Source of the DNA: Patescibacteria group bacterium
GTDB lineage: Bacteria > Patescibacteriota > Patescibacteriia > Patescibacteriales > GWC2-42-12
Reading direction: 5' to 3'
Length of the DNA: 59,090 nucleotides
Assembly: GCA_041662965.1 (NCBI GenBank)
Contig: JBAZRI010000006.1
Span: 1 to 59,090 of the forward strand
Each line of letters starts with the position of its first letter. Position 1 is the first letter of the stretch. A model generated the notes under the pieces. It made no database searches. It saw only the letters and a program-made list of their open reading frames with translations, and was not told the origin of the DNA. A program made the position numbers and the translations under genes. Positions 4,709 through 9,704 of the stretch are shown piece by piece.

Positions 4709-5797
4709 TTACCACGCAATTAAAAACCTTACTGCCCGCCAATATATATTAAAAACCACGTTGGAAATCTCCAGCTGCTTGCTGTTAATCTCTTGATACC
4801 AGATCCTGCCGGAAAATAATTTTACTATATCTTTGTCTTTAACTTGCCTTAATTTTTGAACCCGTTCGCGGGCTTGCCTGATATAGCGCCAATTTTTTAA
4901 GCTTAAAAAATATTTGTAAACCCCGAGCTTTTCCTTAAACCAGCCTTTGCGCGCGGCAAAAAATAATAAGCCGAGTTCCATGGCAACCAGCGCGGGAAAA
5001 ATCAATATTAAAGTAAATAAATGATAATTTTTCAGCATGGCGATAAGGCGATTGCGGTCCATCCAATAATATTTTTTAATGCTGCGGGAAAACTCGTATT
5101 TATGGTAAACCACGGCTTCGCGCGCCAAAATACACTTAAAGCCGGCCAGCCATAGCCGCCAGCCCAGATCCTGATCTTCATTATACATCCAAAATTCCTC
5201 ATCAAACAAGCCGACTTTTTCTAAGGCCTCGCGCTTAAATAAAACCGCCGCGCCGGACGGGTAGCAAATTTCATTTGTCATTTGGTCTTTTTTATCCGCC
5301 ATTTCTTCTCCATAGCCTTGGCTATACCCGAAACCCAAAAAATGCGTAATATTGCCTAAGCTGTTTATTTTATTTTTATCGCTATAAAGCATTAATCTCG
5401 CCTGCACCGCGCCGATTTTACCCCCTTTAGCAAAGGGGGCTAGAGGGATTCTATTTTCTTCTGCTTCTCGCACCATCTTCCCGACGCAATCCGCCTCTAA
5501 AACCGTATCCATATTGAATAAAATCACGTAGTCAAATCCCCGCTCTAGCGCTAATTTCATGCAATCATTATTCCCTTTGGCAAACCCGCCATTATTTTTA
5601 TTTCTGATTATTTCCGCTTCCGGCGCCGCTCGCTTTAAAAAATCATAGCTTTCTTCCGTGCTTTCATTGTCAGTTATAAAAATTTTCATTTCGCCAGCGT
5701 AAGCCTGCTTTTTTATGCTAGCGGCACATTCCGCCAAATATTTTTCGGCGTAATCTTTATAATTCGGACTGATTATTATGGCAACTTTTTTATTCAT
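4709..5797 (-). CDS. glycosyltransferase family 2 with C-terminal membrane segment
   Basis: GT2 N-terminal pattern (VAIIISPNY...ITDNEST), NEDQDLGWR motif, hydrophobic C-terminal helix. Confidence 0.8.
   Translation of the reverse strand: MNKKVAIIISPNYKDYAEKYLAECAASIKKQAYAGEMKIFITDNESTEESYDFLKRAAPEAEIIRNKNNGGFAKGNNDCMKLALERGFDYVILFNMDTVLEADCVGKMVREAEENRIPLAPFAKGGKIGAVQARLMLYSDKNKINSLGNITHFLGFGYSQGYGEEMADKKDQMTNEICYPSGAAVLFKREALEKVGLFDEEFWMYNEDQDLGWRLWLAGFKCILAREAVVYHKYEFSRSIKKYYWMDRNRLIAMLKNYHLFTLILIFPALVAMELGLLFFAARKGWFKEKLGVYKYFLSLKNWRYIRQARERVQKLRQVKDKDIVKLFSGRIWYQEINSKQLEISNVVFNIYWRAVRFLIAW
5421..5439. repeat. in-frame copy of ccccctttaNcaaaggggg palindrome inside the GT2 gene
   Basis: ccccctttagcaaaggggg encodes ...APFAKGG... 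in the 4709-5797 protein; near-identical palindrome at 2951-2969 is intergenic. Confidence 0.6.
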
Positions 5798-5829: not shown

Positions 5830-6681
5830 TTATTCCAGCGGACTTACTATCTCTCTTAATTTATTATTCGCCACTTTGGTATAGATCTGCGTGGTTTCCA
5901 GCCGCGCGTGGCCCAATAGCTCCTGTATATACCTTATATCAGTTCCGCTTTCAAGTAAATGAGTGGCGAAACTGTGGCGCAGGCTATGCGCGGATATATT
6001 GGGCTTTACTTTAGCCAAGCGCGCCGCCTCGCCCACTATTTTTTGAATTGTGCGCACGGTTAATTTTGTTCCGGCGGGCTGGCTTTCAAATAAAAAAGTC
6101 AGCGGCTGATATTCCAGTAAATATTTTTCAATATTTCTTAAAGTCTGATCGGAAACTATCGTTATCCTGTCTTTGGCGCCTTTGCCATGCCTGACCGTAA
6201 TAATCCTGCGGAAAAAATCAATATCATTGATTTTCAGATCAACCGCTTCGCTGACTCGGAGCCCTGAACCGAATAATATTTGGATCATCAATTTATGCTT
6301 AATATTATCCAAAACGTTTATCATCATTACTACTTCATTTTTACTAAGCACAACCGGAAGCTTTTTTTCGCTTTTTGGCCGCTTAATTCCGATTTTTGAA
6401 ATAAAAAAACTCCTTTGCAATACGCCTTCGTAATAAAATTTGAAAGAATTGATGGCTAAATTAACGGTTGATGATGATTTACCGAGATTAAACAAACAAT
6501 CAATATAATCCCGCAAGTCTTCGGAGTTTATCTCTCTCGGGCTTTTATTTGCAAATCTAAGCAATTCTTTGTTATAATAAAGATAAGCTTGAATAGTTTT
6601 CGGGCTGAAATTGCGTATCCTCATTTCCCGAGCTAAATTAAACATCGGATCCTTGCTTGGATATTGATAATTTCCGTTCAT
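5830..6681 (-). CDS. tyrosine recombinase, IntI-like termini but Xer-sized (candidate cassette-array integrase)
   Basis: R...HxxR...Y catalytic set (GLRVSE, HSLRHSFATHLL, LGHARLETTQIYTKV). SAM-like N-domain (FSPKTIQAYLYYNKELLRF). C-terminal ...REIVSPLE resembles the IntI tail ...VRSPLD. The segment between GKGAKDR and HSLRH is only about 60 aa. Confidence 0.85.
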   Translation of the reverse strand: MNGNYQYPSKDPMFNLAREMRIRNFSPKTIQAYLYYNKELLRFANKSPREINSEDLRDYIDCLFNLGKSSSTVNLAINSFKFYYEGVLQRSFFISKIGIKRPKSEKKLPVVLSKNEVVMMINVLDNIKHKLMIQILFGSGLRVSEAVDLKINDIDFFRRIITVRHGKGAKDRITIVSDQTLRNIEKYLLEYQPLTFLFESQPAGTKLTVRTIQKIVGEAARLAKVKPNISAHSLRHSFATHLLESGTDIRYIQELLGHARLETTQIYTKVANNKLREIVSPLE

Positions 6682-6747
6682 AAACGGTTCTGGTTAGAAA
6701 TTTATATTATAATTTTAACTAATTTTAAATAATTAATCAACAAGTTC

Positions 6748-6767
6748 GCATATAACTAGTTATACGC
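6748..6767. other. attI-like core: near-perfect 20-bp palindrome ending in the first GTTATAC box
   Basis: gcatataactagttatacgc (18/20 self-complementary), readable as 7-bp inverted arms around ACTAGT. Lies 67 bp from the recombinase start, at the left boundary of cassette 1. Confidence 0.45.
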
Positions 6768-6874
6768 CATTTTGAAAAGCCCCCTTTATTTTTTTAATAA
6801 TTTTGGCAATTCTTTTTGGGGTCGAAGTATAACTGGAATTTATAGATAAGTATTAATAAATTAATATTAAAATT

Positions 6875-7321
6875 ATGAAAGAACCAACAATGCCAGGGAT
6901 GGAAAATAAAGGAGAGAAAAAATCCTGGGAAGATTTATCAAAAGTAGAAAAAACAGCTGAAGGTTATAAAGCTAACAGTAGATTTATTAGATATGAAATC
7001 TTAAAACAGTTAGGAGAGCAAATGGTAAATATGGCTGAAACATTTAAAGATGAAAGAACCTCAATGGACGAGAAGGCTAATGGATTGCATATAACTGACA
7101 GAGTACATGTTCAAATTCCAATGGATGAAAAATATTCTCTTGGAAATAATTTTAGTTTAAAAGAATTTGAATCTTTCGATCTAAATTTACCTGAAAGATT
7201 TATTAAGTTTATTGAAAGCGGACAATTAGACGAAATTGGATTCGAAAACGAGGCTGGTTACAAGGTTAGCGCTACCCTAGAAGGTGATAATTTAATTATA
7301 AAAAATGAAGGAGCTTTCTAA
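6875..7321 (+). CDS. hypothetical protein (cassette 1)
   Basis: 148-aa ORF with no motif I recognise; acidic, no TM segment; flanked by the 54-nt inverted repeat 6759-6812 / 7325-7378. Confidence 0.55.
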   Translation: MKEPTMPGMENKGEKKSWEDLSKVEKTAEGYKANSRFIRYEILKQLGEQMVNMAETFKDERTSMDEKANGLHITDRVHVQIPMDEKYSLGNNFSLKEFESFDLNLPERFIKFIESGQLDEIGFENEAGYKVSATLEGDNLIIKNEGAF

Positions 7322-7371
7322 AATGAATTGCCAAAATTAAATACACTAATGTAGGGGCTTTTCAAAACAGC

Positions 7372-7568
7372 GCATAACAACGCATATCTGGCTACGGGAA
7401 AATCACTCAAATATATTCAAAGGATGTGATTTTCCCTCCGCCCAAATTTTCATCCCTTAGTTTCGATGAAGATTTAGGTGGAGATAATTAAACAAAGCAT
7501 TTTCTGAAATCAAAGGTTCATCCTGTTAAATCGGGATGAAAACTTCAGATGATGCGTGAACGTTAGAC
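7372..7568 (+). other. attC-like site 1 (long, about 197 bp)
   Basis: R'' GCATAAC, 2-nt spacer, cgcatatctg ... cagatgatgcg, 5-nt spacer (tgaac), R' GTTAGAC. The interior holds three local hairpins (gggaaaatcac/gtgattttccc; ttcatc/gatgaa; tctgaa..ttcatcc/ggatgaa..ttcaga). Confidence 0.6.
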
Positions 7569-7604
7569 GAAATTTATTTTTAATTCCCTTTAATACTTAC
7601 GCTT

Positions 7605-8192
7605 ATGAAAATAGCAATCATATCAGACATTCACGACAACTTTCATAATATTATTCTGACCTTGAAAGATATTAAAAAGCGAAAGGTCGATCAAATTATT
7701 TTTCTTGGCGATTTTATCAATAACGGAATAGCCAAGGTTCTTGCGGAATCACCAATTCCAATTTTTGCCATTTGGGGAAATAATGATGGTGATAAAACAA
7801 TGATTACCAAAACATCGCTGAGTGAAAAAAGTAATTTAACCGTAAGTGAAAATATTTACGATTTTTTGGAGTTTGATAACAGAAAAATTTTTATAACCCA
7901 TTATCCAGATTTGGCTAAGCCAATGGCAAAAACTGGAATTTACGACGCAGTATTTTATGGGCATAATCATTTGAAAAACGAAGATAAAATCGGCGACTGT
8001 TTAGTAGTTAACCCTGGTGAGATATCTGCCCACAAAACTGGTGTGGCAACTTTTGTGATTTACGATACCAAGAAAAATAATATTGATTTCATTGAGTTGA
8101 AAAACTCCGTGACTTGGAAAACGAAAGTTGTCGATGAATATATAAAAACTTCCACGTTTAAATTTAGTAAGTCTAAACGCCACCAGTATTAA
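7605..8192 (+). CDS. YfcE/MJ0936-type metallophosphoesterase (cassette 2)
   Basis: MKIAIISDIHDN..., GDFINNG, WGNNDGD, GHNH motifs of calcineurin-like phosphoesterases. Confidence 0.8.
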   Translation: MKIAIISDIHDNFHNIILTLKDIKKRKVDQIIFLGDFINNGIAKVLAESPIPIFAIWGNNDGDKTMITKTSLSEKSNLTVSENIYDFLEFDNRKIFITHYPDLAKPMAKTGIYDAVFYGHNHLKNEDKIGDCLVVNPGEISAHKTGVATFVIYDTKKNNIDFIELKNSVTWKTKVVDEYIKTSTFKFSKSKRHQY

Positions 8193-8334
8193 AGGGAATT
8201 AAAAATAAACTCAAGGGGGGCGCTGCGCTTTTGCCCCGCTCATTATTAATAAATTCACATATAGGAAAGCGGGGCAAACCCTCGCCTAACAACGCGATAA
8301 GCGGAAAAGTCCTCAGCTCGGACTTTTCGCAAAT

Positions 8335-8363
8335 TTGACTTATTTTTTATTTAACAGTAAAAT
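8335..8363 (+). promoter_or_regulatory. sigma70-like promoter for hicBA
   Basis: TTGACT (8335-8340), 17 nt, TAAAAT (8358-8363), 21 nt upstream of the hicB ATG; overlaps the inner inverted repeat. Confidence 0.45.
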
Positions 8364-8384
8364 AACTGCATAAACTATAAAAAT

Positions 8385-8603
8385 ATGCGTAAAATAGACC
8401 TAAAATCAGTAGTTTGGAAAGAGGGCAAACATTATGTTTCTCAATGTTTAGAAGTTGACGTTTCCAGCTTCGGAAAAACCAAAAAAGAAGCCTTAGCTAT
8501 GCTACAAGAAGCATTGCAATTATATTTTGAAGATATTCCTGTTCCAAAAATGGCTGAGGTAAAAAATCCGATTATCGCTTCGGTTAAGCTTCAATATGCC
8601 TAA
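8385..8603 (+). CDS. hicB: HicB-family antitoxin
   Basis: 72 aa. The WKEGKHYVSQCLEVDVSSFGKTKKEALAMLQEALQLYFE pattern is typical of HicB/UPF0150. Overlaps the downstream toxin gene by 8 nt. Confidence 0.75.
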   Translation: MRKIDLKSVVWKEGKHYVSQCLEVDVSSFGKTKKEALAMLQEALQLYFEDIPVPKMAEVKNPIIASVKLQYA

Positions 8604-8817
8604 ACCTTATCCACTTCGACTCATACTGAAAGTCCTTCTTAACAAGGGCTTCTTTTTTGTTTCACAAAATGGCTCGCACGCTAAGTATCGTTGTCATCAC
8701 AACCCAGAATTAACCGTCATTATTCCAATGCACGGCAAAGAAGTGCTTTATGGCACTTTTAGGTCTATTTTACGCCAAGCAAAATTACAGCTTAGCGATT
8801 TTGATAATAAAAAATAA
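8596..8817 (+). CDS. hicA: HicA-family mRNA interferase toxin
   Basis: 73 aa; LLNKGFFFVSQNGSHAKYR...IIPMHGKEVLYGTFRSILRQA matches the HicA/YcfA pattern including the catalytic His region. Confidence 0.75.
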   Translation: MPKPYPLRLILKVLLNKGFFFVSQNGSHAKYRCHHNPELTVIIPMHGKEVLYGTFRSILRQAKLQLSDFDNKK

Positions 8818-8875
8818 GTCAAACTTCGCTTATCGGTATACGTTAGGCGAAATAAAAAAACAAATTATAAAATAT

Positions 8876-9247
8876 ATGGAAAAACCAATTTATGAACATC
8901 CTGAGGATACCGCATCGGATTTGATGAAAAATGATTATCTAAACGAATATCTTACATTTAATAGGCTACTTTACGATGAAGGCAGCAAATATAAAAAACC
9001 GCCTCTTGCTCCGAGAGGTTTTTCTCAAAGATATCCAAATATGACATTCAGCGGCCTGCCTTTTAAGATTTCAGAAATAGATAGACAAAAAATTGAAGAA
9101 CTAGATAAATTGTCTGTCGAGGCTAATCGTTTATTAAATGAAACGCCTTCAGACACAAATGCGCTATTAAAAATAGTTATTCTGGTTGCAGAAATATGCG
9201 GCAGGCCTGACTTTGCAAATAACTTTAGGGGAGGTGCCAAGGAATAA
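8876..9247 (+). CDS. hypothetical protein (cassette 3)
   Basis: The track ORF 8750-9247 runs across hicA and the GTTAGGC core. The internal ATG at 8876 (MEKPIYEHPED...) lies just inside the cassette boundary, so it is taken as the start. Confidence 0.5.
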   Translation: MEKPIYEHPEDTASDLMKNDYLNEYLTFNRLLYDEGSKYKKPPLAPRGFSQRYPNMTFSGLPFKISEIDRQKIEELDKLSVEANRLLNETPSDTNALLKIVILVAEICGRPDFANNFRGGAKE

Positions 9248-9263
9248 TTTGTTTTTTTACATC

Positions 9264-9350
9264 GCCTAACACGCGATATCCGCAAGAGCTAAAGCCACAT
9301 TTCAATTTGCTTCGCTTCATTGAAATGTCGGATATCGCGAAACGTTAAGT
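9264..9350 (+). other. attC-like site 3 (canonical size, 87 bp)
   Basis: R'' GCCTAAC, ac, gcgatatccg, bulge, acatttcaat/attgaaatgt stem, cggatatcgc, gaaac, R' GTTAAGT. Unequal spacers (2 vs 5 nt), as in attC sites. Confidence 0.7.
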
Positions 9351-9382
9351 GAAATTTTAAAGAAATATTTTTGTTATTTTAC

Positions 9383-9530
9383 AAAAAAACGACCTCTTTT
9401 GTGGGTGGGTCGTCATAGCTTCATTGAAGCAACCTCTGTTTTTTTACGAAGCTAGCCCTTCCCCTAGATTTAACCGGTGAATCCAGAGGCAATCCGACCT
9501 CCTCGGACGGCTAACTTTTCCGAGTATTTA
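9383..9530 (-). ncRNA. candidate about 145-nt structured RNA in ORF-less cassette 4
   Basis: Minus strand: TTGACA (9563-9558), 17 nt, TAAATT (9540-9535) upstream. Intrinsic terminator acgacc...ggtcgt plus U-run at 9413-9383. Internal stems uccga/ucgga, ccucug/cagagg, gcuuc/gaagc. No ORF of 40 aa or more. Confidence 0.3.
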
Positions 9531-9595
9531 TAATAATTTATATTATCCATTATAAAATGTCAAGATTTAATATATACAAAAATATTTCTTTAAAA

Positions 9596-9667
9596 CTCAG
9601 AGGGTCGCTGCGCTTTCTTTTGCCCCTATATTTTAGTATAATTACATTAAGAAATTACAAGCCTAAA
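9596..9667 (+). other. degenerate terminal attC remnant / shared pre-R'' module
   Basis: ctcagagggtcgctgcgctttcttttgcccc... ends in GCCTAAA. The first about 30 nt match 8210-8238 (ctcaaggggggcgctgcgcttttgcccc), which precedes GCCTAAC at 8284. No downstream GTTRRRY partner was found. Confidence 0.4.
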
Positions 9668-9704
9668 TAACCGGTAATTTTTATAAACTAGAAAAAAATA
9701 TCTG

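Follow-up and report, generated by a model that had tools for sequence, protein, structure and literature searches.

The DNA analysed here, called the window, is a stretch of 59,090 nucleotides (nt) from an uncultivated groundwater bacterium of the Patescibacteria (Candidate Phyla Radiation, CPR). It contains an array in which a divergent tyrosine recombinase gene on the minus strand is followed by three cassette units on the plus strand: (i) an open reading frame (ORF) at 6875-7321 with an imperfect hairpin site of 197 nt at 7372-7568; (ii) a metallophosphoesterase ORF at 7605-8192 with a site at 8284-8848; (iii) an ORF at 8876-9247 with a site of 87 nt at 9264-9350. Each site opens with an RYYYAAC box and closes with GTTRRRY-GAAAT. 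The GC content of the array stretch is 33-35%, against about 40% in the flanks. The second site surrounds a toxin-antitoxin (TA) operon, hicB-hicA (hicBA). We conclude, with a probability of about 0.78, that 8284-8848 is a single attC-type site of 565 bp in which hicB-hicA stands in the place of the short apical loop. Boxes are named on the top strand (left, R''/L''; right, L'/R'), as in an earlier reading made from the letters only (the sequence-only reading).

The site and its operon

The features of the site, all on the plus strand, are the following.

8284..8303, plus: R'' GCCTAAC (8284-8290), a 1-nt spacer and L'' ACGCGATAAGCG (8292-8303, one unpaired G); identical in the empty site of a related array (L085 1108-1207)
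8304..8328, plus: hairpin 1 (GAAAAGTCC-tcagctc-GGACTTTTC), side branch of the attC 5' arm, from sequence and fold; stems covary in relatives
8331..8351, plus: left half of the inner stem, AAATTTGACTTATTTTTTATT, an inverted repeat carrying the -35 box TTGACT (8335-8340); the -10 box TAAAAT (8358-8363) lies outside it
8385..8603, plus: antitoxin candidate in the hicB position, 72 aa, DUF7387 (Pfam DUF7387, 5.7e-6)
8387..8405, plus: 5' arm of a perfect 19-nt long-range pairing, at the hicB start from the G of ATG; partner 8757-8775
8596..8817, plus: hicA toxin, 73 aa (Pfam HicA_toxin PF07927, 5.5e-14)
8757..8775, plus: 3' arm of the 19-nt pairing, hicA codons FRSILR within the invariant GTFRSILRQ motif; partner 8387-8405
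8806..8826, plus: right half of the inner stem, AATAAAAAATAAGTCAAACTT, an inverted repeat overlapping the last hicA codons and the stop
8827..8848, plus: L' CGCTTATCGGT (8827-8837), spacer atac and R' GTTAGGC (8842-8848); cassette boundary between G8842 and T8843

On the top strand the layout is thus R'', 1 nt, L'', side hairpin, CGC, left inner stem (which includes the -35 box), -10 box, hicB, hicA, right inner stem, L', 4 nt and R'. The R boxes are complementary at 7/7 positions and form the sole such pair of the region; as in attC sites, the ends are an inverse core RYYYAAC and a core GTTRRRY, complementary to each other. The L boxes CGATAAGCG (8295-8303) and CGCTTATCG (8827-8835) pair perfectly, and when the family consensus is applied they lengthen to ACGCGATAAGCG / CGCTTATCGGT, a single G being left unpaired in the 5' arm. 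As is also expected of an attC, this second pair of boxes is set off by unequal spacers (1 nt and 4 nt), and these are the spacers of the family. The sequence-only reading had paired GCCTAAC at 8284 and its L'' half with 8827-8848, and both the R and the L complements are indeed perfect; all the features that it described lie at the positions it gave or a few bases from them. The inner stem that it placed at 8334-8348 / 8809-8823, bracketing the operon, is longer than it had supposed, i.e., 21 nt at 95% complementarity (8331-8351 / 8806-8826). The inner-stem A.C mismatch of the top strand is a G.T pair on the bottom strand and is conserved in the family, an indirect hint that the bottom strand would be the one that folds and recombines. 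Folded as single-stranded DNA, 8270-8860 gives -93.2 kcal/mol, vs. -55.9 +/- 4.7 in shuffles (z = -7.95), and the outer R and L helices are part of the fold of lowest energy.

The size is not that of known attCs: the reported range is 57-141 bp (PMC5027507), with a non-coding terminal structure, and here 565 bp are found with an apex that codes for two proteins. Extrahelical L-box bases are reduced to the one unpaired G in the window L'' and in the L005/L085 type, most L boxes of the family being fully paired. A side hairpin beside L'' is seen in the window, L005, L006, L009, L012 and L085, with covarying stems (e.g., GAAAAACTC-tcagccc-GAGTTTTTC) and a loop that recurs as TCAGCTC, TCAGCCC or TCGGCTC; this hairpin may substitute for extrahelical bases as the asymmetry feature.

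It had also been claimed that 8284 lacks a nearby partner. This holds for conserved boxes, since no closer conserved R' for 8284 and no separate R'' for 8842 were found; it does not hold for the window itself, in which a candidate lies at 8567-8589 (TCCGATTATCGC-ttcg-GTTAAGC, 3' end of hicB), 11/12 complementary to L'' and with the family spacing. We rejected this candidate because it is absent from relatives and falls in conserved coding sequence; it is probably a coincidence, aided by the palindromic L-box consensus.

The two genes overlap by 8 nt. HicA scores 52.5 bits against PF07927 (cut-off 27), i.e., a HicA domain is present, and matches PDB 1WHZ at 1.3e-4. The 72-aa protein matches DUF7387 at 27.0 bits, just below the cut-off of 27.9, and 20/20 tested relatives match this family as well. 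Searches of PDB with its sequence and profile gave nothing significant (one HicB hit, E = 0.93), and no DNA-binding domain is recognisable in it. A poor single-sequence AlphaFold model (pLDDT 53.8) has a beta-beta-alpha layout. In the hicBA operon announced earlier, hicA is named by its domain, and its partner hicB mainly by position.

The promoter proposed for the operon, TTGACT-17-TAAAAT, lies at 8335-8363 and its -35 box falls within the attC inner stem, as the sequence-only reading had it. TAnnnT is found at 16-18 nt in 74/80 distinct upstream regions of relatives with TTGAC[TA], about 12% being expected; the -10 position is kept and its letters vary (TATTAT, TATAAT, TAAAAT, others). Both the promoter and the outer pair are convincing only because relatives keep them.

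HicA has 155 close relatives, and the source names among the matches listed are Patescibacteria or unspecified bacterium. Relatives of hicA at 58-63% identity are also found in records titled DPANN-type archaea (Pacearchaeota, Nanoarchaeia: L147, L155) and in Bacteroidota (Runella, Emticicia, Spirosomataceae: L153, L154, L157, L158); none of these six loci has an attC inner stem in the census described below.

The 19-nt pairing within the operon is kept in relatives through compensatory synonymous changes (CGT/TTA to CGC/TTG; ATA/TCT to ATT/TCA; GAC/AGG to GAT/AGA). In 99 distinct sequences, 78.1% of cells pair, against 75.6 +/- 0.3 in shuffled data (0/500 shuffles reach it); double changes number 66 cells vs. 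37.8 +/- 6.9, and sliding the partner by 1-3 columns leaves at most 47% pairing. L033 is without attC arms and yet retains 19/19 pairing, with a compensatory change; the pairing thus belongs to the operon as such, and the idea that all nested inverted repeats serve attC folding was rejected. Its role may lie in the mRNA, where it would hide the start of hicB, or in the DNA, where it could assist closure of the hairpin.

Recurrence, covariation and empty sites

Relatives were taken from metagenomes (80 loci) and from species-representative genomes (80 loci). The census comprises 162 loci, given by L numbers, plus the window, with 148 hicBA copies having both genes; attC sites were detected by a scan of explicit geometry and pairing, with shuffled controls.

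Ordinary sites of 75-220 nt in related arrays define the family consensus RYYYAAC - a - L''(~11) - variable side hairpin - CCC - A(A/T)ATT..stem..loop..stem..AAC(T/A)T - C - L' - 4 nt - GTTRRRY, the spacers being 1 nt on the left and 4 nt on the right. Both inner-stem motifs are present in 15/32 ordinary-sized sites and absent from a GC-rich subfamily. The window site follows this plan: GCCTAAC - a - AC(G)CGATAAGCG - hairpin 8304-8328 - CGC - AAATTTGACTT... ...AAGTCAAACTT - C - GCTTATCGGT - atac - GTTAGGC. Where the window has hicBA, ordinary sites have a loop of 4-80 nt, e.g., L038 453-543 (CCCAAATTTACTT-tccacttcgttcc-AAGTAAACTTC).

Both inner-stem halves are found in 44/148 hicBA copies; the halves plus GTT at the correct distance in 30 copies; a perfect L''/L' pair of at least 8 bp directly by the AAC box in 16. 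The hicBA-bearing sites measure 555-839 nt. Their L sequences, of which at least 9 are different, covary across more than 500 nt. The L''/L' pairs are the following.

Window: CGATAAGCG / CGCTTATCG
L005, L085: CGATATACG / CGTATATCG
L010: GAATATCGG / CCGATATTC
L012, L014: CGCACATCTG / CAGATGTGCG (L sequence also written (C)GCACATCTG)
L019, L020, L090, L101: GCGTATAGCAG / CTGCTATACGC
L038: TCGGGCTATTTG / CAAATAGCCCGA
L135: GCGTATATACG / CGTATATACGC

Compensated changes between L'' and L', more than 500 nt apart, are the strongest evidence that the two arms would belong to one working site. The nucleotide identity of hicBA follows the L-box type (L005/L085 89%, L012/L088 86%, L019/L020/L101 81-88%); the operon and the arms are therefore co-inherited. 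The hosts include a Candidatus Magasanikbacteria metagenome-assembled genome (MAG) (L090) and Parcubacteria GW2011_GWA2_38_13 (L087). As judged from these contigs, the hicBA-attC cassettes are an old, diversified family, widespread in CPR arrays. None of the 142 copies with enough downstream sequence has hicBA as an ordinary cassette with a small attC of its own, an arrangement that had been named beforehand as one that would refute the proposal.

Genes other than hicBA also lie between L'' and L' in attCs of 460-840 nt (L085 2295-2971; L088 4290-4967; L135 3545-4007, 4501-5075 and 5412-6250; L090 1344-1878). One such family of 138-142 aa occurs in two separate arrays (L085 vs. L088, 53% identity) and is matched by nothing in Pfam or NCBIfam. 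The cargo of two L135 sites differs although their arms are identical, and one of the two has an extra ORF plus hicBA. Near-identical arms within one array are seen at L085 449 and 1108 and at L135 3545 and 5412.

The sequence-only reading had suggested a look for the same arms without hicBA, and such a site was found. The array of L085 (a Patescibacteria MAG) holds a hicBA site and, at 1108-1207, an empty attC of 100 nt without hicBA: GCCTAACaacGCGATAAGCGGAAAAACTCtcagcccGAGTTTTTCgcAAATTTTATTtcgctttgctcAATAAAACTTCGCTTATCGgtaaacGTTAGAC. When it is aligned with the window minus 8352-8805, R'', spacer, L'', CGCAAATTT and AAACTTCGCTTATCGG are identical; hairpin 1 is altered by compensated changes only, and a loop of 11 nt stands where hicBA would be. 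A second empty copy, with a window-like left arm, is on a sediment metatranscriptome contig (run X25); the low-depth contigs of that kind also include an L011-type left arm, and they reveal no transcription start. Taken together, the arms that fit the consensus, the recurrence on many contigs with L''/L' covariation and the empty 100-nt site bear out the placement of the TA operon in the variable apex of an attC.

The empty sites also speak for another explanation, in which hicBA, with terminal inverted repeats (GACTTATTTTTTATT / AATAAAAAATAAGTC), would be a small non-autonomous mobile element that inserts into attC apices in the manner of IS1111-attC elements or group IIC-attC introns, the window showing a recent insertion into the attC of the neighbour. 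The repeats reach 12-15 nt past the stem shared with the empty sites, TTCGC flanks the unit on both sides, hicBA is housed in attCs of many arm types and preceded by various cassette bodies, and some hicBA copies outside attCs (L033, L042) retain a partial repeat. Nevertheless, of the marks of an insertion sequence or a miniature inverted-repeat element (terminal repeats, target duplication, unrelated targets and a transposase), terminal repeats are present and the set as a whole is not: no transposase or intron-type ORF is found. The boundaries fall on the inner-stem motif AAATTT/AAACTT-C, and sites that lack hicBA conserve this motif too; the apparent duplication TTC-G.. is family consensus. 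A 5-bp target-site duplication TTCGC was for that reason rejected, TTC-L' being part of the consensus. Moreover, hicBA clades co-vary with the L-box type over 11-20% nucleotide divergence, which argues for co-inheritance over frequent hopping, and in some contigs hicBA and its attC form a stand-alone cassette. We hold this explanation to be unlikely. A single ancient insertion followed by residence is compatible with the attC-type site proposed here.

The near-identical arms within single arrays (L085 449/1108; L135 3545/5412) bear on another explanation, i.e., that the 565-bp site is a composite, in which an attC contributed its left half and the following attC its right half, in an array of near-identical sites, when the inner halves flanking an ordinary hicBA cassette were deleted; it would then be a relic rather than one site that functions. 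Hybrids in which the L boxes do not match are frequent (L009, L016/17, L006), and L002 differs from the window from inside attC1, so exchange within attCs does occur. A composite demands two precise deletions, identical in every lineage. The boundary AAATTT/GAC...GTC/AAACTT is the same in all clades. No remnant of an inner L'/R' or R''/L'' lies beside hicBA (the near partner 8567-8589 is window-specific), and the L''/L' covariation implies selection on pairing across hicBA. This explanation is very improbable.

Several observations count against a single attC-type site with hicBA at its apex or call for caution. In block-shuffled windows scanned for any YAAC...GTTR whose R boxes are complementary at 6/7 positions or more and whose L boxes pair perfectly over 9 nt or more, an outer pair is met 0.095 times per shuffled window (19/200 shuffles); taken in the window alone, the R/L pair is only suggestive, and the decisive evidence is comparative. 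Promoter-like sites in 6600-9700 are at chance level (12 vs. 12.0). About half of the stem-bearing hicBA sites have a mismatched or missing L''/L' partner (L003, L006, L009, L016/17, L022, L029, L030), and many hicBA copies may be inactive or hybrid. The bottom-strand fold is more stable than the top-strand fold in only 7/10 sites. The upstream gene is called hicB mainly by its position, DUF7387 being its sole family match and below the cut-off. The recombinase lacks the IntI additional domain; the chemistry and the substrate of recombination in these arrays are presumed by analogy. Folding and recombination of the 565-bp site are, lastly, presumed from assembled contigs of uncultivated organisms.

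The cassette, the array and the recombinase

The other features of the array are the following.

5830..6681, minus: tyrosine recombinase, 283 aa, XerA/IntI-like (Pfam Phage_integrase, 8e-41)
6875..7321, plus: cassette 1 ORF, 148 aa, no family match (Pfam/NCBIfam)
7372..7568, plus: attC1, 197 nt; R'' GCATAAC, L'' CGCATATCTG, hairpin, CCC-AAATTTTCATCCC...GGGATGAAAACTT-C, L' CAGATGATGCG, R' GTTAGAC
7605..8192, plus: metallophosphoesterase ORF, 195 aa (Pfam Metallophos_2, 7e-28); its cassette starts at 7563 (TTAGAC)
8230..8278, plus: leader hairpin of the hicBA cassette (TTTGCCCCGCT / AGCGGGGCAAA), a perfect inverted repeat of 11 nt
8876..9247, plus: cassette 3 ORF, 123 aa, no family match (Pfam/NCBIfam)
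9264..9350, plus: attC3, 87 nt, ordinary size; GCCTAAC-a-CGCGATATCCG...CGGATATCGCG-aaac-GTTAAGT

As the variant contigs indicate, hicBA and its attC make up a cassette of their own; hicBA was not inserted into the attC of the neighbouring cassette. In a contig of run X4, R' (GTTAAGTGAAATT) is joined straight to 8221 and is followed by a hicBA-type left arm; 8221-8842 is therefore a stand-alone cassette. L010 has no more than 68 nt between the preceding R' and the R'' of its hicBA site. The phosphoesterase cassette has a homologue in run X3 that begins with GTTAGAC, departs from the window after 8212 and continues as GTCTAAC-ac-GGCATAT, i.e., an attC of its own, whose R'' is the exact complement of its start TTAGAC. 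The window R'' GCCTAAC is one base off the complement of the phosphoesterase cassette start, and the junction of the two cassettes at about 8213-8220 (CAAGGGGGG) is without an R' box. On the basis of these contig ends, the phosphoesterase cassette probably lost its own attC and became fused to the hicBA cassette, and the fused excision unit would be 7563-8842. The leader hairpin, the attC and hicBA are, as far as such junctions can tell, a cassette in its own right, the body of which is the hairpin of about 65 nt. The further suggestion that the TA operon could be inseparable from its neighbour fits with a phosphoesterase gene that probably shares its excision unit.

Signs of exchange are found at the expected point. 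L012, L013 and L014 have a common upstream sequence and hicBA, followed by three unrelated downstream sequences; L012 (GTTATGC) and L014 (GTTGGCC) diverge immediately after GTT, and L013 (GTTAATC) already within L'. Different neighbours are thus joined at the G/TT cassette boundary, as is characteristic of attCs. In L038, L012 and L135, the hicBA site has an R'' that complements the preceding R' exactly, and the same is true of all ordinary cassettes there. This indirect evidence favours the view that the long hicBA sites would recombine.

Cassette 5' ends, all of which open with GTTRRRY-GAAAT, also pair with sequence just upstream of their own R'', at least 20 nt past the R box: in cassette 3, 8842-8868 pairs with 9244-9270 (27 nt at 93%), and in L002, 3890-3960 pairs with 4925-4995. 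L002 is a near-identical contig (99.9% over 7.2 kb) which departs from the window within attC1, after L'' and GCTAC (window 7372-7400 vs. L002 4988-5015). Its upstream cassettes are different ones (ankyrin repeat, Mem_trans), and a recombinase is lacking within 5 kb. The L boxes of its site do not match, which makes the site a hybrid like the hicBA-site hybrids L009, L016/17 and L006. Such hybrids suggest that exchange may take place inside attCs at points other than R'.

The layout of the array, i.e., a recombinase and cassettes each with a terminal attC, is integron-like as far as gene order can tell; it is not an integron by the strict definition. A recombinase adjacent and divergent to cassettes ending in attC, which is the integron platform, is found in the window, L088 and L100, the homologues at the same divergent position being L088 2721-3560 (53% identity) and L100 2966-3748 (40%). 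The architecture of attC1 is that of the family sites. A scan of the whole window with Rfam gave zero matches.

The recombinase passes one model only, NCBIfam NF040815 'XerA_Arch/integron integrase' (242 bits, cut-off 220). It falls short of TIGR02249 integrase_gron (216 vs. 265 bits, in two stretches) and of PRK15417 (142 vs. 435). Its alignment with VchIntIA (2A3V) is in two pieces, the N-terminal half at 1.1e-25, with 29 residues where IntI has 71. The IntI-specific additional domain near patch III, named as defining for integron integrases (PMC9668308), is thus absent. Its relatives are of about 282-290 aa and belong to CPR, the closest named one being from Falkowbacteria (83% identity). 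In L163 the recombinase is 81% identical, and the contig stops 267 nt from the gene on the array side, as might be expected if variable arrays break assemblies.

These properties of the recombinase lead to the question whether the arrays are integrons at all: the repeats might be duplex substrates of a Xer-like recombinase or of another process, and the nested repeats might serve transcription or mRNA control. The best match is indeed archaeal XerA and the IntI-specific domain is lacking, homologues of about 282-290 aa occur throughout CPR, and the L boxes are mostly without extrahelical bases; L033, although it lacks attC arms, preserves the 19-nt pairing by a compensatory change, and a metatranscriptome contig covers the left arm. 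On the other hand, the cassette boundaries are at the G/TT of GTTRRRY, each cassette 5' end complements its own RYYYAAC box, the arrays adjoin the recombinase in three independent loci, and imperfect hairpins with R and L boxes and covarying stems are found; all four are hallmarks of integron cassettes. This explanation, which bears on naming and mechanism more than on anatomy, appears quite improbable.

Proposed mechanism and comparison with known systems

With hicBA in an attC-type site, the following scheme can be proposed. The operon would be transcribed from its own sigma-70-type promoter, independently of an array promoter; the promoter is conserved and its activity is presumed. Geometry implies that, with the genes between L'' and L', recombination at the G/TT of R' would always move or delete the TA operon and the site together. 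Judging from the variant contigs, the phosphoesterase cassette, without an attC of its own, would share the excision unit 7563-8842 with the TA operon. By analogy with TA cassettes, a cell that lost the unit would be left without the labile antitoxin, and the HicA RNase would be set free; excision or deletion would then be selected against, and the unit and its neighbours would be stabilised. The longer the variable terminal structure of an attC, the less it recombines from duplex DNA (PMC5027507). For an apex of about 500 nt, extrusion from the duplex would thus be rare, and folding would depend on single-stranded DNA, with the nested helices as a help; the suggestion of the sequence-only reading that the long loop could hinder folding would agree with this.

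A wider reading is offered tentatively, and we would rate it somewhat below an even chance. CPR arrays with a short XerA/IntI-like recombinase might use attCs able to carry whole genes in the apex; hicBA might be a selfish passenger of the recombination site, with a promoter built from the attC stem, and an upstream cassette that loses its attC might become addicted to it. The template for the operon is the bottom strand, presumed to be the recombinogenic one, so TA expression and folding could exclude each other, coupling mobility to TA activity. Searches tuned to 57-141 bp may miss such sites.

The consequences would be as follows: (i) the usual layout of a cassette is inverted, the coding load being on the L-box side and the body a hairpin of 65 nt; (ii) the question is raised of the maximum apex length of an attC still compatible with folding and recombination; (iii) the locus offers a natural case of bases that serve a promoter and a recombination hairpin at once; (iv) loss of an intervening attC offers a route by which neighbour genes would be locked to a TA operon; (v) with attCs of 555-839 bp, beyond 57-141 bp, tuned searches could under-count CPR cassette arrays; (vi) an array recombinase without the IntI signature domain bears on the evolution of integron-type recombination from Xer-type enzymes. 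Full-text searches of the literature turned up no account of genes within an attC or of cassette arrays in CPR, which does not prove that none exists.

The TA cassettes of chromosomal integrons (ccdAB, phd-doc, higBA, relBE and parDE, Vibrio superintegron) are comparable in that a type II TA operon with its own promoter lies in a cassette array, and the expected role is the same, i.e., to keep the array from losing cassettes or undergoing large deletions (Szekeres 2007, Guerout 2013 and Iqbal 2015, as cited in PMC5027507 and PMC9668308). They differ in that their genes are in the body, between R' and R'', with an ordinary attC after them, whereas here the genes are between L'' and L'. A -35 box made from an attC stem is likewise a difference from these cassettes.

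The HicAB type II family shares with the present operon the HicA_toxin domain with its conserved G-S-H motif and an overlapping small partner gene. HicB antitoxins have a partial RNase H fold, usually with a DNA-binding domain. Here the antitoxin comes first, the 72-aa partner matches DUF7387 only and is without a recognisable DNA-binding domain, and the hicB start and the 3' region of hicA are connected by a conserved pairing of 19 nt.

The recombinase resembles IntI and archaeal XerA in being a tyrosine recombinase encoded divergently beside an attC-like array. It differs from IntI in the lack of the specific additional domain of about 40 residues, and it exceeds the cut-off only for the XerA_Arch model.

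Elements that insert into attCs (IS1111-attC, group IIC-attC introns, and group IIB introns, PMC7923331) likewise interrupt an attC with coding DNA at a defined position and are known in empty and filled versions. They mobilise themselves, whereas hicBA codes for no transposase or reverse transcriptase; unlike in these elements, the ends of hicBA coincide with a conserved attC stem, and hicBA is co-inherited with the arms.

Long branched attCs, such as the Vibrio cholerae repeats, have in the same manner R and L boxes around a variable apex that is not bound by the recombinase and may be branched. These do not exceed 141 bp and are non-coding, whereas the present sites are of 555-839 bp and code for proteins; the side hairpin and the conserved inner stem with its A.C mismatch are specific to the family described here.

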